The notes below the pieces were generated by a model. That model ran no database searches. It had not been told where the DNA came from and saw only the letters and a list, made by a program, of their open reading frames with translations. A DNA stretch of 44,137 bases from Deltaproteobacteria bacterium. Its GTDB lineage: Bacteria > Desulfobacterota > UBA8473. The stretch spans positions 1 to 44,137 of the forward strand of contig QZJR01000098.1 of the NCBI GenBank assembly GCA_003599365.1, read 5' to 3'. The position numbers were made by a program, and so were the translations under genes. Of this stretch, positions 7,902 to 32,722 are shown piece by piece (positions within the stretch are counted from its first letter, which is position 1; each line of letters opens with the position of its first letter).

Positions 7902-8005
7902 GTAACTACTTAGGTAGGCACAAAGTAGGAAAAAACAACGAAACGACCCTGTTCCGCTCTGCTTTGTGTCTATGTGCCTTTGCTACTTTGTGCCTGAGTA
8001 GTTAC
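7902..8005. repeat. type B hairpin element bounded by GTAACTACTTAGG / CCTGAGTAGTTAC
   Basis: Inner arms ggcacaaagtagg ... gctactttgtgcc pair with each other. The ctttgtg(t/c)c...tgtgcctttgc(t/c)actttgtgcct core recurs at 26631-26666 and 29513-29558. The element ends 3 nt from the cheZ stop. Confidence 0.9.
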
Positions 8006-19840: not shown

Positions 19841-20476
19841 ATGGATAAAAAATTTTTTAAGATATTAGTAGCAGATGATGATGAGATACCACGAGATATT
19901 GTCAGCAGTATTCTCTGCAAAGAGGGGTATTCTGTTGTGTCGGCAACAAATGGCATTGAGGCTATAAATATTCTCAGACTTGAGGATATAAACCTCGTTA
20001 TAACTGATCTCAGAATGCCCGGAGCTGATGGGCTTGATGTTCTTAAGCACGCTCTGATAATCAATCCTGAAGCCGCCGTTGTTATACTCACTGCTTATGG
20101 AACGCTGGATACCGCACTTGGGGCAATAAAAGGAGGAGCATATGATTACCTGACAAAACCGTTCAAGGTTCAGGAGATACTCATTCTTGCGGAAAGAGCA
20201 TATAAACGGGTGGAATTAATAAATGAAAACAGGGAATTAATCAAACATCTCAGGGATATTTATGGTGACATCGAGGTAATAAAGACAGTTTCGGGGAGTA
20301 ATAATCCCCTAATTATAACAGGTTGGATAGAGAGGATAGAAAGATTAAAGGAGATGAATATCCTTTCAGCACAGGAATCGGAAAAATTAAAGAAAAGGTT
20401 GATTAGGGGGAATGGAAATGGGAATGGAAAAGGGAAAGGGAAAGAGAAAAGGGGGGGGAAGAGTATTGATAGTTGA
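19841..20476 (+). CDS. response regulator receiver protein with helical C-terminal extension and G/N/K-rich tail
   Basis: 211 aa. ILVADDDEIPRD, NLVITDLRMPGADG, VVILTAYG, YLTKPF. The tail GNGNGNGKGKGKEKRGG is encoded by a hexamer-repeat purine tract. Confidence 0.85.
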   Translation: MDKKFFKILVADDDEIPRDIVSSILCKEGYSVVSATNGIEAINILRLEDINLVITDLRMPGADGLDVLKHALIINPEAAVVILTAYGTLDTALGAIKGGAYDYLTKPFKVQEILILAERAYKRVELINENRELIKHLRDIYGDIEVIKTVSGSNNPLIITGWIERIERLKEMNILSAQESEKLKKRLIRGNGNGNGKGKGKEKRGGKSIDS

Positions 20477-21950
20477 TGATGACCCTCTCGTGAGAGGTGT
20501 CCTCTCGGATATATTTTATAATGTTGGTGGCTATAAAACCGATGTTGCTGCAGATGGTTTTGACGGAATAGAAAAGATCAAAAATAACGAATACGATATT
20601 GTTTTTGCAGACATGGCAATGCCAAGATTGAATGGTATGGATTTTCTGAGAGAGATAAAAAAGATTAACCCCTCTATGCCTGTGGTTATAACTACAGGCA
20701 TTCCCTCTATAGACATGGCGGTAAATGCCATAAAAGAAGGTGCACAGGATTTCATAACAAAACCATTCAGGATTGATACGGTAATATCTATTGCAGACAG
20801 GATAACCGGTGAAAAAAAACTTTTAAACAAACTTGCGGTAAAAGATGATTACGAGGCATCCGTCGGGGAGCTGAAAGCAGAGCTTTTTAAGAAACTTCAG
20901 GAGATAGGCATCTTACAATCCATAAGCACTGAGCTTGATGGCCTGTGTGATAATAAAGAGATATTCGAAAGGATTGTAGCGATGGCATCAAAGCTCTTTA
21001 TGGTAAAAGAGGCATCCTTTGGCGCTATTGAAAATGGGCACCTGAAAATAAAGGGAAGCATAGGGACAATGGTAAAAGATATTTCCATTGCGAACAGTAT
21101 TTTTGAAAATGTGATAAAGAAAAAAACCTTTTGCCTTGCCTCATTGGGAGAGGTTAATCCCCACAATGGCACTCTTCTTACCTCCCCTTTTCTTTCGGTC
21201 CCCCTTACTATGAATAATGAGGTCTTTGGAATTCTGAACCTCTCAAACAAGGCAGACGGGACTGCATTCACAGACGATGAGATACGTTTTGCGCTTACCT
21301 TTGCAGAGAAAGCGGCCATGAGAATAGAGAACAACGCCCTTTATGAAGTCTTTTATACCAATCTCATGAATACATTGAAATCACTGGTCATCAGTATCGA
21401 GGCCAGAGATCCCTATACAAAGCATCATTCAGAAAGGGTTAGTTTATATTCCCTTCAGATTGCAGATGTCATAAATCTGGGTGCGGAAGATAAGGATGCT
21501 ATAAAGTTTGGCGGCTATCTCCATGACATAGGAAAGATAGGTGTCAGGGACACCGTTCTCGTGAAGCCAGGGATGCTTACACCCGAAGAAACGACAGAAA
21601 TCAGGCTGCATCCCGTTATAGGGTATAATATATTAGAACCTTTGAGGTTTTTTCCTAACGAGATGGATATTATTCGACATCATCATGAGAGATTCGATGG
21701 CAGTGGTTATCCAGATGGTCTTGCATGCGATAAGATTCCCCTTATCGCGCGAATCGCTGCCGTTGCCGATACTTATGACGCTATGACATCCTCGAGGCCG
21801 TATAGAAATGCAATGTGTCATGATGCTGCAATAAAAGAGCTAAAAAGATGTTCATCTTCTCAGCTTGAAGATGAGATTGTTCTTGCATTTTTGCAAACAC
21901 CGGCAGGGAAGGGGGGGGCAAGGTTATCACTAGAGAGGACAACACATTGA
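20412..21950 (+). CDS. REC-GAF-HD-GYP c-di-GMP phosphodiesterase-type response regulator
   Basis: 512 aa. Receiver (VLIVDDDPLVRG, DIVFADMAMPRLNG, ITKPF), a central GAF-like region, and HD-GYP motifs (HHSERV, GGYLHDIGKIGV, HHERFDGSGYPDGL). The start is uncertain (ATG at 20412, 20418 or 20424). Confidence 0.88.
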   Translation: MEMGMEKGKGKRKGGGRVLIVDDDPLVRGVLSDIFYNVGGYKTDVAADGFDGIEKIKNNEYDIVFADMAMPRLNGMDFLREIKKINPSMPVVITTGIPSIDMAVNAIKEGAQDFITKPFRIDTVISIADRITGEKKLLNKLAVKDDYEASVGELKAELFKKLQEIGILQSISTELDGLCDNKEIFERIVAMASKLFMVKEASFGAIENGHLKIKGSIGTMVKDISIANSIFENVIKKKTFCLASLGEVNPHNGTLLTSPFLSVPLTMNNEVFGILNLSNKADGTAFTDDEIRFALTFAEKAAMRIENNALYEVFYTNLMNTLKSLVISIEARDPYTKHHSERVSLYSLQIADVINLGAEDKDAIKFGGYLHDIGKIGVRDTVLVKPGMLTPEETTEIRLHPVIGYNILEPLRFFPNEMDIIRHHHERFDGSGYPDGLACDKIPLIARIAAVADTYDAMTSSRPYRNAMCHDAAIKELKRCSSSQLEDEIVLAFLQTPAGKGGARLSLERTTH

Positions 21951-22492
21951 GATTGGAACAAAATGAGCCGGAAGCACGTGGATATTTCCGGGTGGATGAT
22001 GTTTTTCCCGTGATCTCAAGGAAGGTGACGGAAGATTCTCCATATAGGAAATCGAAGGTCTTTCCAGGATATAGTATGGAAATTTCCTATATGGATGTGT
22101 CTGATGGGACAATAAATCCACAATTATGGAAGATGCTGGTTGATATTAACACAAAGCTTGGACTGATACTTGAGCACCTGCAACTGGAGAGCGAGGGACT
22201 TATAAAGGCTGAAGACATGCCGGTTAATATTAGCGCATCGGGCATAAGATTCAAAATGAAGGAAAAGGTTGATATAGGGGATGTAATTGAGATAAAAATG
22301 CTTCTGCCCACATATCCTCCCGTCGGAATCCTTACCTATGGAAATATAGTACAGGTGAAGGATCTTGGAAACGGCGAATATGAAGTCGCCTTACATTTTT
22401 CTGATATGGATGATGAGGTAAAGGACGAGATAATCCAATATGCTCTCAAGCGCCAGAGAGAGATTCTAAGGAAGCACAAACAACAACTTTGA
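21947..22492 (+). CDS. PilZ domain c-di-GMP receptor protein
   Basis: 181 aa. RGYFR (RxxxR) at residues 11-15 and NISASG (D/NxSxxG) at residues 94-99. The TTG start overlaps the HD-GYP stop (TTGA). Confidence 0.8.
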   Translation: MRLEQNEPEARGYFRVDDVFPVISRKVTEDSPYRKSKVFPGYSMEISYMDVSDGTINPQLWKMLVDINTKLGLILEHLQLESEGLIKAEDMPVNISASGIRFKMKEKVDIGDVIEIKMLLPTYPPVGILTYGNIVQVKDLGNGEYEVALHFSDMDDEVKDEIIQYALKRQREILRKHKQQL

Positions 22493-22493
22493 A

Positions 22494-22506
22494 CCTGAGT
22501 AGTTAC
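22494..22506. repeat. solo CCTGAGTAGTTAC terminal-repeat motif
   Basis: Exact copy of the type A/B terminal motif immediately after the PilZ stop. No partner arm is nearby. Confidence 0.8.
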
Positions 22507-22519
22507 AGGGAAATGATGT

Positions 22520-23287
22520 TTGATGGACCGTGCAAGCGTTATGGGAATTATTTTCGGGATAGCTGCAATTGTTGGCGGGAATCTGTTCGAGGGGGGAAGG
22601 CTTGATTCTATCATGCAGCTAACCGCTGCGGTGATTGTATTTGGTGGAACATTTGGCGCGGTACTGTTGAGTTTCCCACTACGGGATATCCTGAAAGCCA
22701 TTTCCTCTCTCAGAGATATTTTTATGGATGGAAAGACAAATCCTGAAACTTCTATAAATAGCATTATCCGGTATTCAAATATAGTGAGAAGAAAGGGTTT
22801 AATTGCCCTGGAACCGGAGATATCTAAAATCAAAGACTACTTTCTCAGAAAGGCACTGAAACTTGCAGTTGATGGTATGGGGCCAAAAATACTGAAAGAG
22901 GCAATGGAGCAGGAAAACCTTACCTATGAAGAAGAGAGAAGACGGATAGCAAGGGTTTTTGAGACTGCTGGGGGGTTTGCGCCTACCATAGGAATAATAG
23001 GAGCGGTTTTAGGACTTATACAGGTGATGGAGAATCTTTCCGATCCCTCAAGACTCGGTTCCGGCATTGCTGTAGCCTTTGTGGCGACCATATATGGCGT
23101 TGGTTCAGCGAATCTGATACTGCTGCCAATATCAAAAAAACTATTAAATAAACTTAACCATGAACTATCTGTAAGAGAGATAGTGCTGGAGGGGGTTGTG
23201 GGAATACAATCCGGAATAAATCCGTACTACCTTGAAGAGAGCCTCAGGGTTTTTATAGAGAGGGATAGAACAAGGATTTCCAGATGA
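22520..23287 (+). CDS. motA: flagellar stator protein MotA, set 1 (PomA/MotP-like length)
   Basis: 255 aa (TTG at 22520 or ATG at 22523). MotA/TolQ/ExbB channel family, with four TM segments and the C-terminal segment GIAVAFVATIYGVGSANLILLPI. Confidence 0.9.
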   Translation: MMDRASVMGIIFGIAAIVGGNLFEGGRLDSIMQLTAAVIVFGGTFGAVLLSFPLRDILKAISSLRDIFMDGKTNPETSINSIIRYSNIVRRKGLIALEPEISKIKDYFLRKALKLAVDGMGPKILKEAMEQENLTYEEERRRIARVFETAGGFAPTIGIIGAVLGLIQVMENLSDPSRLGSGIAVAFVATIYGVGSANLILLPISKKLLNKLNHELSVREIVLEGVVGIQSGINPYYLEESLRVFIERDRTRISR

Positions 23288-23976
23288 GAAAGAGACGAAA
23301 GGTGGAGGATCATGACAATGCAGATAGGTGGGTTATATCATATGCGGACTTCATTACCCTTCTTTTTGCATTTTTCACAACCCTGTATGCCATCAGTAAT
23401 GTGGATTCAGGCAAGCTCAAGATGTTTGCAGGATCGATGAAGTCTGCCTTTAAGACAACGGGGACGGATAATTCTGCCGGTACCACCATTATAGAAGGCA
23501 TCAAACCTATAAATTATGCAGATGTTAGGCTTGAAAAGGATATCAGGATAACATTTGAAAAATTTGGTAAGCTGGAGGGAATTAGTATCTCAAGAGATGA
23601 AAGAGGCGTCTCAATATCCTTTGGAGATTCTGTTCTTTTTGATACAGGTTCAGCAGTGATTAAGGATGAAGCAGAACCGTTGCTCTTATCAGTAATATCT
23701 GTTATAAAGAGGACACAAAACAATATAATAGTTGAGGGACACACAGATAATATACCTATAAAGTCTAAATACCTTTCAAACTGGGAATTATCCACAGCAA
23801 GGGCTGCCGGTGTCCTTATGTATATTCTGAAAGAAAATAATAACATGAGCCCGGAAAGATTTTCCACCTCAGGATATGCGGAATATCGTCCGGTTACATC
23901 CAATGTGACCCCTGAAGGAAGGGCAAAAAACAGGAGGGTAGATATAGTATTTGTCAGCAACAGATATGGTAGCTAA
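23284..23976 (+). CDS. motB: flagellar stator protein MotB, set 1 (OmpA-like C-terminus)
   Basis: 230 aa. RWVISYADFITLLFAFF contains the conserved channel Asp. The peptidoglycan-binding domain has GHTDN, NWELSTARA and NRRVDIV. Confidence 0.9.
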   Translation: MRKRRKVEDHDNADRWVISYADFITLLFAFFTTLYAISNVDSGKLKMFAGSMKSAFKTTGTDNSAGTTIIEGIKPINYADVRLEKDIRITFEKFGKLEGISISRDERGVSISFGDSVLFDTGSAVIKDEAEPLLLSVISVIKRTQNNIIVEGHTDNIPIKSKYLSNWELSTARAAGVLMYILKENNNMSPERFSTSGYAEYRPVTSNVTPEGRAKNRRVDIVFVSNRYGS

Positions 23977-25435
23977 AATACTCTTTATTGATGGCAGTCC
24001 TTTTGGCCATGATCTGATAAAGATGTCCTTCAGCAGGCATCCGACGGATTATCATCTGGAATTCGTATCTACAGCAAAGGAAGGGTTTGAAGTCATCAAA
24101 AGGGAACAGGTAAAGTGCATTTTTGTCAGTCAGGAACTCCCTGACATGGATGGATTTGAATTCCTAAAAGAAGTTAAGATGCTGAAGATTCAGGCGCCCG
24201 TGATTATGATGGCAATAGATGAAGCCAAAATGGTAGTTGCTGAGGCGCTGGAGAAAGGCGCAGAGGATTGTGTGACCAAGAGCCTAAAAACCTTCAGGGC
24301 ATTTCCTTCCATATCTGAGCGTTCCCTTTTCAGATATAGACATAAACTAAGCAGTGAGAGGACCAAGAGAGATAAGTTCATTATCCAACGTCAGAAACAG
24401 TGGAGGGCAATTATCGACGCCATAACAGACTTTATTTTTGTGATAGACGACGATTACAGGTTAAGGAGGGTAAATAGTGCACTCGCAAAAGTCTTAGGTA
24501 TGCATCCAAAGGAACTTGTAGGCAAGAGATGCAGCGACTTAGATAACATCATAGATGTACCTGATGAACGCTGCCTAAAAGATGTTATAAAGGATGGCAC
24601 TCCATATATTTATGAAAAAAACATAGGTAACGATACATATCAGATAAGTATATTCCCTCTGTATGACGATGATAGGCCCATGACAATTCATGTAATGAAA
24701 AATATCACCGAAATGAAGAGATTAAAGGAGCAATTATATCATTCCTATAAACTCGCATCCCTGGGTCTTCTGGTCTCAGGGGTTGCCCATGAGATTAACA
24801 ACCCGCTAACAGGAATAATCGCCTATACAGAGCTTCTCGGGATGAGTGTCGTGGATGAAGAGACCGGTAAGAAATTAAAAAAGATAATGTACAGCGCTGA
24901 GCGGTGTAAGAAGATTGTCGAAAACTTGCTTACATTCTCGAGGCAGAAAAACCCATCAAAGAGCCTTGAGTCAATGAATGATATTATTGATAGGATCGTA
25001 GATTTCAGGGGGTACTGGCTTGGAGTAAATAACATCGTGATCGAGAAGGATTATGATGTTATTTCTACTGTCCTTGTCGACTCACAGCAGATTCAGCAGG
25101 TAATCCTCAATATCCTTCTCAATGCCGAACATGCGATAGTTGACTCTAATGTAGATAATGGAAGAATTAAATTTACCACAAGGTATGATCGGGACAATCG
25201 TAAGATAATAATAAAGATTTCTGACAATGGTCCCGGAATCCCACAAAATATAATCTCGAGCATATTCGATCCATTCTTCACCACAAAGCCTGCCGGCACC
25301 GGAACAGGATTGGGCCTTTCCATATCCCACGGTATAATTGTTGAACATGAAGGCAACATAATGGTTGAAAGTTCTGAAGGAAAAGGCACTACCTTCTTTA
25401 TAGAGATTCCTTTAGCTAAGTGCTCTGGACCATAA
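23951..25435 (+). CDS. sensor histidine kinase with degenerate N-terminal receiver, PAS, HisKA and HATPase domains
   Basis: 494 aa (TTG at 23951 or ATG at 23966). PAS (WRAIIDAITDFIFVIDDDYRLRRVN), H-box HEINNPLTGI, G-boxes DNGPGI and GTGTGLGLS. Confidence 0.88.
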   Translation: MSATDMVAKILFIDGSPFGHDLIKMSFSRHPTDYHLEFVSTAKEGFEVIKREQVKCIFVSQELPDMDGFEFLKEVKMLKIQAPVIMMAIDEAKMVVAEALEKGAEDCVTKSLKTFRAFPSISERSLFRYRHKLSSERTKRDKFIIQRQKQWRAIIDAITDFIFVIDDDYRLRRVNSALAKVLGMHPKELVGKRCSDLDNIIDVPDERCLKDVIKDGTPYIYEKNIGNDTYQISIFPLYDDDRPMTIHVMKNITEMKRLKEQLYHSYKLASLGLLVSGVAHEINNPLTGIIAYTELLGMSVVDEETGKKLKKIMYSAERCKKIVENLLTFSRQKNPSKSLESMNDIIDRIVDFRGYWLGVNNIVIEKDYDVISTVLVDSQQIQQVILNILLNAEHAIVDSNVDNGRIKFTTRYDRDNRKIIIKISDNGPGIPQNIISSIFDPFFTTKPAGTGTGLGLSISHGIIVEHEGNIMVESSEGKGTTFFIEIPLAKCSGP

Positions 25436-25725: not shown

Positions 25726-26577
25726 ATGTTCGTCATTATAGGCATAGTTGTAGTTTTAGGTTCTATCATCGGTGGTTTCTTGATGGAGGGAGGCAACCTC
25801 CATGTACTTTTTCAGCCTGCTGAACTGGTTATTATATTTGGTGCATCTATCGGCGCTTTCTTCATAGCCTCTCCCTCGAGGGTTGTGAAGCTTGTTGTCA
25901 AACATATTACCTTGATAATAAGTTCTAAAGAGCAGAGCAAGGAAAAATACCTGGAAATTCTCTCTCTCCTGTATCAATTATTCTCAAAGATAAGAAAGGA
26001 GGGACTCATATCAATAGAATCCGACGTTGAGGCGCCTGATAAGAGTGCAATCTTCAACAAATACAAAAGTGTCATGACAAATCTCGATATCATTAACTTT
26101 CTATGCGATAATGTGAAGGTAATTATAACAACAAATGTCCCTCCACACGAGCTCGAAGACTTAATGGAACTCGAAATAGAAACCCATCACCACGAGGCTA
26201 TGGTTCCATCCCGCAGTCTTGCTAAGATAGCAGATGCTCTGCCTGGGCTTGGTATTGTTGCTGCGGTTTTGGGTGTTGTCCTCACTATGGGTAAAATTGA
26301 CCAGCCCCCTTCAGTGCTTGGGCATTGCGTAGGCGCTGCCCTGGTGGGAACATTTCTTGGGGTGTTAATGTGCTATGGCTTCGTCGGCCCAATGGCGACA
26401 AATCTTGAATATAAGGTAAAAGAAGACAGTGTATATTTTCAGATTATAAAAGTAGCGCTGGTAGCATTTGTTGGAGGTTCACCGCCACAGATGGCGGTAG
26501 AATTTGCCAGAAGGGCGATACCGGGCAAGGAGAGACCAACCTTTGATGAACTGGAAAAGGGGATACGGGATGGATAG
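25726..26577 (+). CDS. motA: flagellar stator protein MotA, set 2 (enterobacterial MotA-like)
   Basis: 283 aa. The N-terminus MFVIIGIVVVLGSIIGGFLMEGGNLHVLFQPAELVIIFGASIGAFF closely parallels E. coli MotA. Confidence 0.92.
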   Translation: MFVIIGIVVVLGSIIGGFLMEGGNLHVLFQPAELVIIFGASIGAFFIASPSRVVKLVVKHITLIISSKEQSKEKYLEILSLLYQLFSKIRKEGLISIESDVEAPDKSAIFNKYKSVMTNLDIINFLCDNVKVIITTNVPPHELEDLMELEIETHHHEAMVPSRSLAKIADALPGLGIVAAVLGVVLTMGKIDQPPSVLGHCVGAALVGTFLGVLMCYGFVGPMATNLEYKVKEDSVYFQIIKVALVAFVGGSPPQMAVEFARRAIPGKERPTFDELEKGIRDG

Positions 26578-26586
26578 ATAAAAAAA

Positions 26587-26666
26587 GGATTCAAGGGGTC
26601 AAGGGGTCAAGGATTCGAACGACACGATCCTGCTCTGCTTTGTGCCTTTGCCACTTTGTGCCTGAC
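26587..26666. repeat. type B-related repeat with tcaagggg octamer pair
   Basis: ggattcaaggggtcaaggggtcaaggattcg ... ctgctttgtgcctttgccactttgtgcct. Confidence 0.85.
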
Positions 26667-26684: not shown

Positions 26685-27482
26685 ATGAAGGATAAAAATA
26701 TAATTATCAAGAAGGTAAAGAAACAGGCGGAAGAAGGTGACCACGGTGGGGCATGGAAGGTTGCATACGCAGACTTTGTTACTGCCCTAATGGCATTCTT
26801 TCTGCTGATGTGGCTTTTAGCCATGATAGCCCCTGAAAAAAGGATGGGTCTTGCTTCATATTTTAAGGAATTCACGGTGTTCAATGAGAGCGGTCAATCC
26901 TTCATGGGAAAAGAGAGCGAGGTCTTTAATGAGGCTGGTAAAGCTCTCAGAAAGGTTCCACGTGAATTACAGGGGACATATAATATGAAACCCGAGGAAT
27001 TTAGGGAAGTAATAAAGAAAGCTATCGAAGAAAAACTCGGTGACATTAAAGACCAGATAATAGTAGATACATTTGAGGGTGGAGTTCGTGTTCAGTTAAT
27101 GGACAAAGAAGGGAGGCCAATGTTCGACCTCGGTTCAACAAAGCCTACGTCCCTTGCGGTAAGGATATTACGGGTAATCGGAGACAACATAAAATTACTG
27201 CCGAATTCTGTCGCTGTAGAGGGTCATACCGATTCATTGGTATATGGCTCTAAAGGTTACGGCAACTGGGATCTATCTACAGAACGTGCATTGGCGGCAA
27301 AAAAGGAACTGGAAAAAAATGGGCTTGAACCTAAGCGCCTTATCAGAGTCGCAGGCTATGCAGATACAGTGCCCCTTGTAAAAGAAAACCCGAAGGACCA
27401 GAGGAATAGAAGAATAAGCATAATGCTCATGTTCCCTGATAGATCAGAGAATCCAGAATCCAGGAGTCATAAGTCAGAATGA
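26685..27482 (+). CDS. motB: flagellar stator protein MotB, set 2 (OmpA-like C-terminus)
   Basis: The start is moved from 26640, which lies inside the repeat, to the ATG at 26685 (MKDKNIII...). AWKVAYADFVTALMAFFLLMWLL carries the channel Asp. GHTDS, NWDLSTERA, NRRISIM. Confidence 0.9.
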   Translation: MKDKNIIIKKVKKQAEEGDHGGAWKVAYADFVTALMAFFLLMWLLAMIAPEKRMGLASYFKEFTVFNESGQSFMGKESEVFNEAGKALRKVPRELQGTYNMKPEEFREVIKKAIEEKLGDIKDQIIVDTFEGGVRVQLMDKEGRPMFDLGSTKPTSLAVRILRVIGDNIKLLPNSVAVEGHTDSLVYGSKGYGNWDLSTERALAAKKELEKNGLEPKRLIRVAGYADTVPLVKENPKDQRNRRISIMLMFPDRSENPESRSHKSE

Positions 27483-29023
27483 AAAGATTATTGACATTAT
27501 CAGTAGTTCTTGCCTCACTCTTATTCTTGTCTGCACGATTGACTGCTGATGATGTTTCCCCTGACAAGCAGGAAGCTCAAAAAGTTCAGAGGACTTCGGA
27601 TAATAATTCGTCAGATCGTGAAGGGGCTGATATTATTATATTAATGGATAGTTCAGGAAGCATGAAAAAGACCGATCCCCAAGATTATAGACAGCCGGCG
27701 GCAAAGCTCTTTGTATCCCTCCTTGGGGAAAGTGATCGTATAGGAATTATAAGTTTTGGGGATTCAGCTAGGGTTTTGGCATCTCTTACAGAGGTCACCA
27801 AGAAAAATCGCGAGGTACTATTTAATACTATCAACAAAATATCTTCAAAGGAATCTTCTACAAATATCTATGATGCCGTAAAAAAAGGGTTTGATGAGCT
27901 TAAATCCTGTCAGAAGAAAAGCAGGATTATCATTCTGATGTCTGATGGCAAGCTTGCATTAGGTTCAAAGAAAAAAGACGATGCGGCCTTTACGGAACTA
28001 TCCGGAATTCTACCCGAGTTGACAAAGTCCAATATCAAGCTCTATACCGTAGCCTTTACAGAAATATCCGACGTGAAACTTCTCGAGGACATGGCAAAGG
28101 AAACAGGGGGATTTTTTAGATTTGCTAAAGATGATAAGGATATCCATCTAATATTTGCATCAATCTTTGAGAAGATTAAATCTCCGAATACCATTCCTTT
28201 AGAAGGTGAGACCTTCGAGACAGACAAGGATATAAAGGAGGCGATATTGCTCATTAGTAAGACACCCGGAACATCCACCGAACTCATAGATCCATCAAGA
28301 GTGAAACATACCTCCATGAAATATGGAAAGAACATAGAATGGTATAAGTCAAACATCTTTGATATGATTACCATTAAGGAACCTGCCGTGGGAAAATGGA
28401 AGGTGAAACTAAGCTCCAGAGAAGGGAATAAGATATATGTGATAACAAACCTTAATCTTAAAACTTCCTTTGACAAGAGCTTTGTTTATAAAGGAGATAA
28501 AATAAAGATTGACGTTTGGCTCGAAAGAGATGGCAAAATATTAACAGAAAAGGATGTTCTTAGACAGGTATCCTTCTCTTCTGAAATAGCTACTCCCGGT
28601 AGAGAAAGTGTGAAATTGGATCTCCTGGACAATGGAAAATATGGAGATGATAAGCCTGATGATGGGATATCCTCCCGTGAGTTTGTGGTTAACGAAGGAG
28701 GAGAATATGCCATTAAGGTAACCGCAAAAAGTATAACATTCAAGAGAGAAAAAGTTATTCAGTTTAAGGCTGTTTCAAAACCTGCACAGTTGGCAAAACA
28801 GATAACACTTTCTAAACCCCCATTGAAGAAAAAGACCCTGTCTGAGACAGATGTTTCATGGAAATCAGTTCTCGTTAAATTTGGCATGATAAACCTGTTA
28901 TTACTATTTATAGTTACAATTATATATCTATACAAGAAATACAAAAAGGATGGGTTTTTAAAAATAGGGTGGTTAAAAAAGTTATATACTTTATGGGATA
29001 CTGGCAATGATGATAAAGATTGA
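27479..29023 (+). CDS. exported von Willebrand factor A (vWA) domain protein with C-terminal membrane anchor
   Basis: 514 aa. Signal-like N-terminus (LLTLSVVLASLLFLSA), MIDAS DSSGS (27647-27661) plus downstream T and D positions (SSTNIYDAV, ILMSDG), a beta-rich middle region, and a C-terminal TM (MINLLLLFIVTIIYLY). The start overlaps the motB2 stop (ATGA). Confidence 0.85.
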   Translation: MKRLLTLSVVLASLLFLSARLTADDVSPDKQEAQKVQRTSDNNSSDREGADIIILMDSSGSMKKTDPQDYRQPAAKLFVSLLGESDRIGIISFGDSARVLASLTEVTKKNREVLFNTINKISSKESSTNIYDAVKKGFDELKSCQKKSRIIILMSDGKLALGSKKKDDAAFTELSGILPELTKSNIKLYTVAFTEISDVKLLEDMAKETGGFFRFAKDDKDIHLIFASIFEKIKSPNTIPLEGETFETDKDIKEAILLISKTPGTSTELIDPSRVKHTSMKYGKNIEWYKSNIFDMITIKEPAVGKWKVKLSSREGNKIYVITNLNLKTSFDKSFVYKGDKIKIDVWLERDGKILTEKDVLRQVSFSSEIATPGRESVKLDLLDNGKYGDDKPDDGISSREFVVNEGGEYAIKVTAKSITFKREKVIQFKAVSKPAQLAKQITLSKPPLKKKTLSETDVSWKSVLVKFGMINLLLLFIVTIIYLYKKYKKDGFLKIGWLKKLYTLWDTGNDDKD

Positions 29024-29483
29024 TGCCCTTTATTTTCTGCTGCTTATTCAGTTTTCAGTGATACTGCTGGTATCGGCAGTATACCTTTTTTTGAAGAATA
29101 GGATGTATAGAGCGCTAAATCTGAAAACGTTAAAAGAACTTGCAGAGGCAAAGAATACTATAAAGGAATCGGAAATGTTAAAAGCAGAGGAACATAAACA
29201 GAGACTGGAAGTAGAGGAAGTGCAGGAAGTAAAAGCCACTGAAGAGTTGCAGGTTCCTCAGGGGGGGGGTGAAGCTGTTGATGAAGACAGGTATATTGAA
29301 ATATTAAGGGATAGGGATGAATTAATAACAAAGGTGAAGGAATTTGAGGATAAATTACAGGAAAAAACCAAACTGTTGGATGAAATACAGAAAAAGTATG
29401 AGGGGAAAGAAGAGGAATATGCAAATCTGGAAAAAGAATATTTGATCTTGTACAGACGGCAGCAAGATCAAGGGCTGCCTTAA
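29007..29483 (+). CDS. membrane-anchored coiled-coil protein
   Basis: 158 aa. N-terminal TM (ALYFLLLIQFSVILLVSAVYLF) followed by E/K-rich heptad-like sequence. Overlaps the vWA gene by 17 nt. Contains a G9 tract. Confidence 0.6.
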   Translation: MMIKIDALYFLLLIQFSVILLVSAVYLFLKNRMYRALNLKTLKELAEAKNTIKESEMLKAEEHKQRLEVEEVQEVKATEELQVPQGGGEAVDEDRYIEILRDRDELITKVKEFEDKLQEKTKLLDEIQKKYEGKEEEYANLEKEYLILYRRQQDQGLP

Positions 29484-29485
29484 CC

Positions 29486-29558
29486 GGTAACCGTTCACTG
29501 TGAACGGTTACCTGCTTTGTGCCTATGTGCCTTTGCCACTTTGTGCCTAAGTAGTTAC
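29486..29558. repeat. 27-bp palindrome (29486-29512) plus type B repeat ending in CCTAAGTAGTTAC
   Basis: ggtaaccgttcac t gtgaacggttacc, followed by tgctttgtgcctatgtgcctttgccactttgtgcctaagtagttac. Lies between two convergent operon ends. Confidence 0.9.
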
Positions 29559-29569
29559 GTTTACTATAA

Positions 29570-31387: not shown

Positions 31388-32722
31388 TTAGACAAAAATA
31401 CTTACTCCTTTCATATCCCAATAAGAAATCGGTAATTGTATTTCTTTCCTTGAGTGTGGTGCTTCTGAATCTTCTTCCCCGACATTATCCTCTGCTTCAT
31501 TTCTTTTATCTTTAAGGGACACTGAAAAACTTCCTACGTTGAGTCCTTCATTATTAAGTGTATTCAGGATATTATGGAGATTGTTGACAATCAATTCCTT
31601 CCCGATGGTATCTGATACATTTATATGTGCATTGATCATACCTTTGTCCAGGGTTAGCTCGATATGGAGCTTTCCCAGACTCTTGGTTCCGAGGAAAACA
31701 TCTATCGAGGCATCATCTTTTTTCGTTATAATGAACGCATTCCCAGGAATGTAGGTAGATTCCGGCGATTCTTTTATAGGTTGAGCAAATTTGACATTAT
31801 TCGAGTTAGCGGTGTTATCAAAATTTGGGAATATGTTCCCCGGTTTTATGTCGATCTCTGCTGTATGTGAACCGGCATCTTTCCCTTTGCCTGCTGCCGG
31901 CTGTTCAAGCGCTGTGAATTTGTCTAATTCAAATAAGACCTCGCTTACAGGTGATTTTAATGTCTGAAAATCTTTTATAATAGAAAAATTATTTGGAATA
32001 TCTATTTCACTGCCGAGTGTATACAGGGTGTTGTGGAGATTATTGACAATCGAATCTTTGCCCATGGCCTCCGGCGCTTTTATCTGTGCATTGATCATAC
32101 CTTTGTCCGGGGCTAGCTCGATATGGAGCTTTCCCAGACTCTTGGTTCCGAGGAAAACATCTATCGAGGCATTATCTTTTTTCGTTATAATGAACGCATT
32201 CTCAGGAATGTAGGTAGATTCCGGCGATTCTTTTATAGGTTGAACAAATTTGATAGACTCGTAAAAAGTCCAATCTCCCCTCCCCTTGTGGGAGGGGATG
32301 AAGGGGAGGGCACCCTCACCCCAACCCTCTCCCATCGAGGGAGAGGGATTTTTTCGACTTTTTACAACTTCATCAAATTTGACATCATTCGAATCAGCAG
32401 CGTTATCAAAATTTGGGAAAATGTTCCCCTGTTTTATGCCGATCTCTGCTGTACATGAACCGGCATCCTTCCCTTTGCCCGCTGTTGGCTGTCCTGCTGT
32501 TTCAGGCAGACTGCTGCCCTCCGCTGATATATCCTGATCTCCTGACTGGAACGTTGAAATGGATAAAATAGATGTATTGCCCTGTAATAAGTTTAATATG
32601 GCGGCCATCAGGCAATCAAAAGACTCGCTGTTGGATTGCGCCATATCCGGTTTGACACTTTGAACTGCCAATGACTTTATCCCACCGGTTATTTTAGACT
32701 CTATTGGCATTAAGATATCCAT
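31388..32722 (-). CDS. fliK: flagellar hook-length control protein FliK-like, with tandemly duplicated C-terminal domain
   Basis: 444 aa, in the fliK position (fliJ-ylxF-fliK-flgD-flgE). The C-terminal Flg_hook-like segment (LGKLHIELTLDKGMINAHINVSDTIGKELIVNNLHNILNTLNNEGLNVGSFSV) is present twice. Confidence 0.75.
   Translation of the reverse strand: MDILMPIESKITGGIKSLAVQSVKPDMAQSNSESFDCLMAAILNLLQGNTSILSISTFQSGDQDISAEGSSLPETAGQPTAGKGKDAGSCTAEIGIKQGNIFPNFDNAADSNDVKFDEVVKSRKNPSPSMGEGWGEGALPFIPSHKGRGDWTFYESIKFVQPIKESPESTYIPENAFIITKKDNASIDVFLGTKSLGKLHIELAPDKGMINAQIKAPEAMGKDSIVNNLHNTLYTLGSEIDIPNNFSIIKDFQTLKSPVSEVLFELDKFTALEQPAAGKGKDAGSHTAEIDIKPGNIFPNFDNTANSNNVKFAQPIKESPESTYIPGNAFIITKKDDASIDVFLGTKSLGKLHIELTLDKGMINAHINVSDTIGKELIVNNLHNILNTLNNEGLNVGSFSVSLKDKRNEAEDNVGEEDSEAPHSRKEIQLPISYWDMKGVSIFV
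32254..32374. repeat. type E MITE-like element inserted in frame in fliK
   Basis: Ends gatagactcgtaaaaagtcc and cgactttttacaacttcatc form an inverted repeat. The core is C-rich/G-rich hairpins. AAATTTGA flanks it on both sides (32246-32253 and 32375-32382). Confidence 0.88.

Follow-up and report, generated by a model that had tools for sequence, protein, structure and literature searches.

We analyzed a pair of adjacent genes in a 44,137-nucleotide (nt) contig of a Deltaproteobacteria bacterium (QZJR01000098.1; this whole stretch is hereafter called the window), located directly downstream of the second of two flagellar stator gene sets, motA2-motB2. The first gene encodes a protein carrying the von Willebrand factor A (vWA) domain and the second encodes a small coiled-coil (CC) protein with one transmembrane (TM) helix. 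Judging from the anatomy of the two proteins, their natural fusions, the distribution of the family and its genomic contexts, the pair is probably a generic transmembrane tether, similar to integrins or to McaA/McaB, that was relocated into a stator operon in one lineage. A preliminary description of the locus, made from the sequence alone, had proposed the pair as a candidate periplasmic stator accessory and had named a passenger module unrelated to motility as the alternative. A conserved stator accessory was not supported by our analysis.

Anatomy of the vWA protein and its coiled-coil partner

The Pfam VWA profile (PF00092) matched residues 51-224 of the vWA protein (E = 3.4e-20; 73.4 bits, compared with a gathering score of 23.8). 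All five residues of the MIDAS (the adhesion site dependent on a metal ion; D57, S59, S61, T128 and D156) were invariant in an alignment of 23 homologues, and the MIDAS was thus intact, as reported in the preliminary description. In an AlphaFold2 (AF2) model built on the 23-homologue alignment (mean predicted local distance difference test score, pLDDT, 73), residues 2-20 formed a hydrophobic N-terminal helix and residues 20-47 were disordered. The vWA fold spanned residues 51-233 and was followed by two beta-sandwiches (245-432), which a disordered linker (437-458) connected to a TM helix (461-491). The N-terminal MKR, the hydrophobic core and an A-x-A-like site are predicted to form an export signal. 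The two terminal helices of the model agree with the export signal and the C-terminal anchor claimed earlier. Further, the beta-rich region of about 250 residues in that description was recovered as the two sandwiches, but its length was about 190 residues.

The stalk formed by the sandwiches matched known profiles weakly, namely GBD_Hemicentin of Pfam (residues 244-320), choice-of-anchor X of NCBIfam (380-416) and NCBIfam TIGR03503 (237-437), of which model positions 1-213 of 374 were covered. Choice-of-anchor X and TIGR03503 have the beta-sandwich stalk in common with the vWA protein. Because the TIGR03503 score of 78.7 bits is far below the cut-off of 305.6, the match represents a domain held in common and not family membership. 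When the model was compared with the PDB using Foldseek, generic vWA proteins were matched, including the vWA and beta-sandwich layouts of 4fx5, ITIH1, ANTXR2/TEM8, ArnB and integrin beta. This search detected no motor scaffold and no match to the whole chain (query-normalised TM-score about 0.3). A topology with a periplasmic MIDAS-vWA head, a beta-sandwich stalk and an inner-membrane anchor is supported. A reading of the pair as a defence system was also considered and was rejected, with PADLOC giving no match for either protein.

A single-sequence AF2 model of the CC protein was all-helical (residues 4-79, including the TM helix, 93-131 and 135-154). The TM helix (residues 7-29; nt 29025-29093) is preceded by a short N-terminus facing out and is followed by the basic sequence KNRMYR. 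Because of this basic stretch, the coiled coil is predicted to be cytoplasmic according to the positive-inside rule. The CC protein belonged to no family in Pfam, NCBIfam, PADLOC or PDB; searches of Pfam at E ≤ 0.1 and of PDB with a profile returned coiled-coil noise only.

Homologous partners are usually 266-290 residues long, compared with 158 residues in the window. In an alignment of the partners (alignment A2), the N-terminal TM helix contained a near-invariant Glu, which is Gln in the window, and was followed by an acidic linker. A central module (…QKxxILxLMCYKDxFExA…EKFxxWEEEL…) was conserved among the partners and is missing from the short form in the window. In the C-terminal motif (Table 1), E142, E144, L148 and Y149 were invariant and the remaining specified positions were near-invariant.

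The two open reading frames form one functional unit

The nearest relative that does not belong to the species, P0002 (75% identical), had the vWA and CC proteins joined in a single chain of 617 residues with one TM helix, and the C-terminal part of this chain was 79% identical to the product of the window CC open reading frame (ORF). Independent fusions were found in P0012 (595 residues) and in a clade of 700-750-residue proteins (P0068, P0085, P0093 and P0099). Every one of these fused proteins carried the C-terminal motif of the partner. Further, the partner gene was located directly 3' of the vWA gene in about 20 other Nitrospirota loci, and a TM/coiled-coil gene occupied the same position in L023, the sole gammaproteobacterial locus inspected. 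We concluded that the vWA and CC ORFs form one functional unit. The existence of natural fusions strengthens this conclusion as well as the topology described above, in which the vWA protein is tethered to the inner membrane from the periplasmic side, as the preliminary description had predicted.

The TM helix of unfused vWA proteins contained a W..VL.KFGIIN motif, which was missing from the long fused forms. The Asn of FGIIN and the Glu or Gln of the partner may mediate the packing of the two TM helices.

The usual genomic home of the pair is a core locus

A word-indexed search detected 230 relatives at E ≤ 1e-5, chiefly in Nitrospirota, Thermodesulfovibrionales and Dissulfurispiraceae. A profile of distant members added >280 further relatives, which were chiefly gammaproteobacterial (e.g., Thiogranum); Thiogranum longum is a cultured carrier of a homologue. 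An exhaustive profile search yielded 1053 clusters (50% identity) at E ≤ 1e-30, and nearly all of the best 150 spanned the vWA domain, the stalk or both. The pair represents a large membrane family of >1000 clusters at 50% identity, made up of two components or of their fusion, which spans Nitrospirota together with a large clade of Gammaproteobacteria. The family is annotated only as 'VWA domain-containing protein', and its coiled-coil partner falls in no Pfam family.

For the analysis of synteny, 49 loci from species-representative genomes were taken from among the matches listed, and all of their ORFs were searched with every window protein. Neither MotA, MotB nor any other flagellar structural gene of the window was found near the vWA gene in L001-L036, and motA and motB were absent within up to 10 kb of the vWA gene in about 30 loci of full-length homologues from other species. 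In relatives with 42% to 65% identity, the pair was preceded by genes for HDOD, GAF-HD-GYP, DUF948 and YtxH proteins, hypA and cdd. It was followed by trx, ffh, rpsP, khpA, rimM, trmD, rplS and rnhB, in some cases with a response regulator (RR)-GGDEF gene or histidine kinase (HK)/RR genes before trx. From this recurring hypA/cdd, vWA-CC, trx-ffh locus, we concluded that the two genes belong to the core genes of the class and are inherited vertically; by position, they lie outside any flagellar regulon. The preliminary description had considered that homologues might reside in non-flagellar contexts such as Bat operons; the context was indeed non-flagellar, but it was this core locus and not a Bat operon.

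The signalling genes flanking the core locus varied by genome and comprised RR-GGDEF genes, HAMP-PAS kinases and single-domain RRs (L051/L052 11467-13244, L053, L055 and L064). Together with the HDOD and GAF-HD-GYP genes upstream, they represent a recurrent but unproven association with cyclic di-GMP (c-di-GMP) signalling.

Linkage to the stator genes is restricted to one genus-level clade

The order motA2-motB2-vWA-CC was kept only in one genus-level clade of six contigs, in which MotB2 was 79-98% identical. Three of the contigs, L066 (GCA_016209225.1), L067 and L068 (GCA_009773075.1), carried genes for an RR, RR-GAF-HD-GYP and PilZ proteins, motA1B1, an RR-PAS-HK gene, motA2B2, vWA, CC and the convergent flgE-flgD-fliK; L050 and L061 carried part of this arrangement. 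The amino acid identity to the window was 95-98% for L067 and L068, 85-94% for L066 and 75-83% for L050. The co-occurrence with motAB across genomes that a general stator accessory would lead one to expect was thus seen only in these five contigs beside the window.

MotB2 relatives outside the clade were examined for the genes that follow them. In the closest one (L058, 72% identical), a small secreted ORF and sugar-nucleotide genes come after motB, and a response regulator gene does so in L059 and L060 (both 50% identical); no vWA gene was found downstream of motB in these three loci. The context of L059 is cheB-cheA-cheY-cheX-PilZ-motA-motB, so that a PilZ gene lies directly 5' of the MotA2B2-type stator genes, unlike in the window. 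The claim that the pair is a new periplasmic stator accessory therefore failed outside one genus-level clade, where the roughly 30 vWA loci lacked mot genes and the MotB2 relatives lacked the vWA gene.

Within the clade, we compared the gene junctions. The vWA start codon (ATG at 27479) overlaps the motB2 stop codon (TGA at 27480-27482) as ATGA, the last two bases of the ATG being common to both, and AGGAG is located 13 nt upstream of the ATG. This overlap, recorded in the preliminary description, was present in four of the five related contigs (L050 and L066-L068) and thus in five of six including the window. In L061, a 97%-identical strain, ATGA was lost, and about 170 nt of TTTGTGCC-type repeat lay between motB2 and the vWA gene. 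This insertion (118-300) rewrote the first signal-peptide residues of the vWA protein. A further ~130 nt rich in CTGTAG/CTACAG (1742-1872) lay downstream of the vWA gene, and both junctions were thus interrupted. The vWA protein of L061 may be mis-targeted or differently expressed. Because the insertions of L061 break both junctions, translational coupling is weaker as a functional argument.

The spacer between the vWA and CC genes was 70-77 nt in L066-L068 and about 130 nt in L061, and in L050 the two genes were fused. The window carries one extra T, by which the ancestral TAG is shifted out of frame; an overlap of 17 nt between the two ORFs and a non-conserved tail of about 20 residues on the vWA protein result. 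The overlap of 17 nt had been noted previously and is real, although it is specific to the window strain. A 99%-identical Logan protein had the same length of 514 residues, and the extra T is therefore not an assembly error of the window alone. Both the ATGA and the 17-nt overlaps are normal operon features and no statistical anomaly.

A neighbour-joining tree was constructed from the periplasmic region of the vWA proteins. The window clade was recovered with 100% bootstrap and, together with P0012, was sister to the core-locus clade (79% bootstrap for the joint clade). The tree is consistent with the pair having been relocated in the window lineage, with or without a preceding duplication. 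NCBI lists L066 as 'Desulfobacterales bacterium'; all other vWA relatives in that part of the tree carry a Nitrospirota label. The taxonomic assignment of this metagenome-assembled genome or of the window organism may be unreliable.

Proposed function and alternative explanations

According to the explanation that we favour, the vWA protein, which is predicted to be exported, has its MIDAS head in the periplasm on two beta-sandwiches and a flexible linker, with the C-terminal TM helix in the inner membrane. The partner exposes a few residues outside, crosses the membrane once and forms a cytoplasmic coiled coil ending in the LEKEYxxLY motif. The two TM helices would pack via polar residues, that is, the Asn of the vWA protein and the Glu of the partner (Gln in the window clade). 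The head would bind a periplasmic or cell-wall ligand, as in an integrin, an anthrax-toxin receptor or McaA/McaB, and the coiled coil would position or recruit a cytoplasmic partner. In most Nitrospirota (class Thermodesulfovibrionia, Dissulfurispiraceae), the pair is a two-gene operon inherited vertically at a housekeeping locus. In the window clade, it would have moved behind motB2, and its partner there is a short form lacking the central module. The pair would be co-transcribed with MotA2B2 there, and any role at the stator would be specific to this lineage rather than that of a conserved stator scaffold.

Several observations weigh against a tether that merely happens to lie in this operon. 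MotB2 has diverged to 79% identity within the clade, and over this distance the motA2-motB2-vWA-CC order and the ATGA overlap have been retained, which suggests selection for co-expression with the stator. Further, two other copies that are off the core locus and have short partners adjoin chemotaxis or c-di-GMP genes. L016 is accompanied by a divergent gene for a methyl-accepting chemotaxis protein (MCP), with a PilZ gene immediately downstream, and L065/P0012 is located 1.5 kb after MCP-CheW-MCP genes in a region rich in mobile elements. In L026 (Ca. Magnetomicrobium), where the partner is of intermediate length (243 residues), a flagellin gene lies 2.5 kb upstream and a GGDEF-EAL gene downstream; L005, L011, L019 and L035 had no motility or signalling neighbours of that kind. 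The idea that the short-partner forms constitute a single motility-linked paralogous subfamily was not borne out by the neighbour-joining tree, in which they were polyphyletic, with weak support. Since the sample is too small for a test, this idea and the motility association of these copies are only a lead. The passenger-module alternative of the preliminary description fits the data better than its stator proposal; inside the window clade, however, the genes have a stable order and five of six contigs retain the overlap, so that a lineage-specific link to the stator is conceivable.

The pair may alternatively have been recruited to MotA2B2 as a lineage-specific stator accessory after the move and the loss of the central module of the partner, which we regard as unlikely. 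The vWA head could then bind MotB2 or a ring component, and the coiled coil could hold or regulate the stators from the cytoplasmic side. Besides the conserved order and ATGA coupling, such a role agrees with the remodelling of the partner in the clade (the short form and the change of the TM Glu to Gln) and with the location in a motor-control cluster with an RR, RR-GAF-HD-GYP and PilZ proteins, two stator sets and a hybrid kinase. It also agrees with the MCP, CheW or PilZ genes adjoining other short-form copies and with the proposal that vWA proteins are coupled to other 5:2 motors (PMC12204202). However, the argument is one of adjacency within a single genus-level clade: mot genes are missing from the roughly 30 full-length vWA loci of other species, MotB2 relatives elsewhere lack the pair, and the short-form partners are polyphyletic. 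Further, the two junctions are interrupted by repeats in L061, where the N-terminal residues of the signal peptide are also changed, with no counter-selection visible. A broader version, which we consider rather improbable, holds that the motA2B2 operon took over an ancient integrin- or McaAB-like tether, which was reduced to a short form and now serves as a stator-specific accessory that, for example, anchors, positions or gates MotA2B2 via the MIDAS and the coiled coil. The short-partner variants beside MotAB, MCP-CheW or MCP and PilZ genes would then be unrecognised membrane landmarks of motility and chemotaxis. If the lineage-specific stator role is correct, this would be the first flagellar stator with a vWA-type partner in the periplasm, and the locus would be a natural case of the recruitment of a motor accessory; adjacency is the only support for such a role.

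Two further explanations assign the vWA protein to known classes. TolA/TonB-like vWA 'force transducers' of the inner membrane, encoded beside tolQ/tolR-like motors, have been proposed; they begin with a TM segment that bears an SHLS/His motif or forms a pore helix with an Asp, and a disordered linker connects this segment to the vWA domain at the C-terminus (PMC12204202). The window protein would, by analogy, dock on MotA2B2 via its TM helix and pass force to the outer layers. It does adjoin a MotAB 5:2 motor in the window clade, and the class was proposed in that study. However, the order is reversed here (a cleavable N-terminal signal, the vWA domain and then the C-terminal TM helix), and neither His nor Asp occurs in the hydrophobic segments MKRLLTLSVVLASLLFLSARLTA and VLVKFGMINLLLLFIVTIIYLY, which thus lack the SHLS/His motif and a pore-lining Asp. 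MotB2 already provides a plug, a TM helix and a peptidoglycan-binding partner, and the family is normally not found beside motA, tolQ or exbB; we consider this explanation very improbable. A Bat/aerotolerance or MoxR-associated vWA membrane protein was considered because the vWA domain weakly resembles BatA and BatB (NCBIfam; PDB 3ibs, 4jdu and 4rck). The scores were far below the cut-offs (BatA, 44.6 bits vs. 380; BatB, 21.5 vs. 350), and no MoxR AAA+, DUF58 or TPR-Bat genes were neighbours in the window or in the inspected homologue loci. The topology, with a signal peptide, a C-terminal anchor and a beta-sandwich stalk, also differs. This explanation was rejected on the scores and the gene context, and the probability that we assign to it is close to nil.

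Operon structure and other features of the window

The coordinates of the operon and of the protein features are listed in Table 1; those given for the pair in the preliminary description (27479-29483) proved correct. MotA2 scored 393 bits against TIGR03818 (NCBIfam; cut-off 303.8). The mechanically assigned start of motB2, TTG 26640, falls within an intergenic repeat (covering 26639-26650), and the MotB2 orthologues are 257-265 residues long; because of these two observations, ATG 26685 (MKDKNIII...) is likely to be the true start.

Table 1. Coordinates in the window of the motA2-motB2-vWA-CC operon, of its protein features and of the adjoining elements
Feature	Position	Strand	Evidence
motA2, encoding a flagellar stator MotA of the E. 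coli type; opens the operon that the pair ends	25726-26577	+	NCBIfam TIGR03818 MotA1; Pfam MotA_N and MotA_ExbB
motB2, MotB plug and OmpA-like peptidoglycan-binding domain	26685-27482	+	Pfam MotB_plug and OmpA; NCBIfam PRK09041 MotB, 234 bits
vWA protein, predicted secreted and membrane-anchored, 514 residues	27479-29023	+	ORF, junction, homologues, AF2 model
Predicted Sec signal peptide, residues 1-23, MKRLLTLSVVLASLLFLSARLTA	27479-27547	+	Sequence reading; AF2 helix 2-20, disordered 20-47
vWA domain, complete MIDAS (D57-x-S59-x-S61, T128, D156)	27629-28177	+	Pfam PF00092; alignment; top Foldseek matches are vWA domains
Two beta-sandwich stalk domains, residues 245-432, family-specific	28211-28774	+	AF2 strands; weak Pfam/NCBIfam matches
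C-terminal TM helix, residues 461-491, conserved W..VL.KFG(I/M)IN of unfused members	28859-28951	+	AF2 helix; TM alignment
Non-conserved C-terminal tail from 1-nt insertion (relatives end ...DGFKK)	28958-29020	+	Junction comparison
CC partner, 158 residues, short form	29007-29483	+	ORF, alignment A2, all-helical AF2 model
C-terminal motif L-E-K-E-Y-x-x-L-Y-(R/K)-x-Q-Q of the partner	29427-29465	+	Alignment A2
Terminator-like hairpin of 12 bp at the operon end, after the pair and before the convergent flgE	29486-29512	+	Sequence
Copy of dispersed intergenic repeat (GCTTTGTGCCTATGTGCCTTTGCCACTTTGTGCCT...)	29508-29560		Repeat comparison

Upstream of the operon, a motor-control cluster (19841-25435) encodes an RR, an RR-GAF-HD-GYP protein (a putative c-di-GMP phosphodiesterase), a PilZ protein, the first stator set, which is of the MotCD/PomAB type, and a hybrid RR-PAS-histidine kinase. 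The cluster suggests c-di-GMP-dependent control of two stator systems.

A dispersed intergenic repeat with the approximate consensus GCTTTGTGCCTATGTGCCTTTGC[CT]ACTTTGTGCCT[GA]AGTAGTTAC followed several operons in the window and in related contigs. Copies were found in the window at 7947-8000, 26626-26665 and 29508-29560, in L050 at 49-133 and in L061 at 118-300, the last being the expanded copy between motB2 and the vWA gene. The 12-mer core of the repeat had 14 matches, compared with 5.4 expected, and none of 100 shuffles reached 14.

The gene for a FliK-like hook-length protein (31388-32722, minus strand) contained a long internal duplication of two near-identical blocks of about 130 residues (…GKGKDAGS.TAEI.IK.GNIFPNFDN…QPIKESPESTYIP.NAFIITKKD.ASIDVFLGTKSLGKLHIEL…). 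An in-frame insert between the blocks (…PSPSMGEGWGEGALPFIPSHKGRGD…) resembles the translation of a repeat element. The window protein has 444 residues, more than its orthologues in L066 (387) and L067 (419).

Comparison with known systems

To our knowledge, and as stated in the preliminary description, none of the stator scaffolds MotX/MotY, FlgT, FlgP and PflA/PflB is a vWA protein. These scaffolds co-occur with their motors across species, unlike the pair in the window; the two would share a periplasmic site by MotB if the pair does act at the stator. None of these scaffolds was present among the Pfam and NCBIfam matches.

Integrin beta and the anthrax-toxin receptors ANTXR1/TEM8 and ANTXR2/CMG2 resemble the vWA protein in having a MIDAS head, a beta-sandwich (Ig-like) stalk and a single TM helix, and their cytoplasmic tails bind intracellular partners. 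The headpieces of ANTXR2, TEM8 and integrin beta were among the Foldseek matches, with 12-18% identity and the low query-normalised TM-score given above. In contrast to the window protein, these receptors are eukaryotic, and the similarity is confined to the vWA fold, with no sign of common descent beyond the domain. The bacterial force transducers (PMC12204202) share with the vWA protein a periplasmic vWA domain tethered to the inner membrane and, in the window clade only, proximity to a 5:2 motor. The window protein differs from them in its reverse domain order, the lack of motor motifs, the presence of a coiled-coil partner and the absence of general synteny with motors.

The closest known architecture, as judged from published descriptions, is that of McaA/McaB, the only characterised example, and of the 'Mca-like' pairs. 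In Magnetospirillum magneticum AMB-1, McaA starts with a signal peptide, followed by a vWA domain in the periplasm, one TM helix and a tail in the cytoplasm; the MIDAS is required for its localisation. McaB, which forms a two-gene operon with McaA, has four residues ahead of its TM helix and a coiled coil in the cytoplasm (219 residues in total). McaA acts as a landmark in the membrane and positions magnetosomes by way of McaB and MamK (PMC9512821, PMC13170167). The window pair is similarly arranged as a two-gene operon, and its first protein likewise combines a predicted signal peptide, a MIDAS vWA domain and a single TM helix and ends in the cytoplasm. The partner is likewise small (158-290 residues in the family), with few residues before the TM helix and a predicted cytoplasmic coiled coil. 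However, McaA has a cytoplasmic tail of about 380 residues with an essential '530 region' (residues 530-665), whereas the tail of the window vWA protein is ≤25 residues and is partly derived from the frameshift; in this family, long tails occur only in fused relatives. The TM helix of McaA is near residue 392, compared with 461-491 in the vWA protein.

The genomic settings may also differ. McaA and McaB act on magnetosomes and MamK, whereas the annotated parts of the 44-kb window contain flagellar and chemotaxis genes only and no magnetosome genes. No Magnetospirillum entries were present among the matches listed from the family profile searches, and no magnetosome gene was found among the ten neighbouring ORFs scanned at the Ca. 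Magnetomicrobium homologue. Unlike McaA/McaB, the family of the window pair is widespread in genomes without evidence of magnetotaxis. The published survey of Mca homologues covered magnetotactic genomes only, and McaA/McaB homologues were reported in Nitrospirae (PMC9512821, PMC13170167). If the window pair and McaA/McaB are homologous, the published view that restricts mcaAB-type genes to magnetotactic bacteria would have to be revised, since the pair belongs to the core genes of many Nitrospirota.

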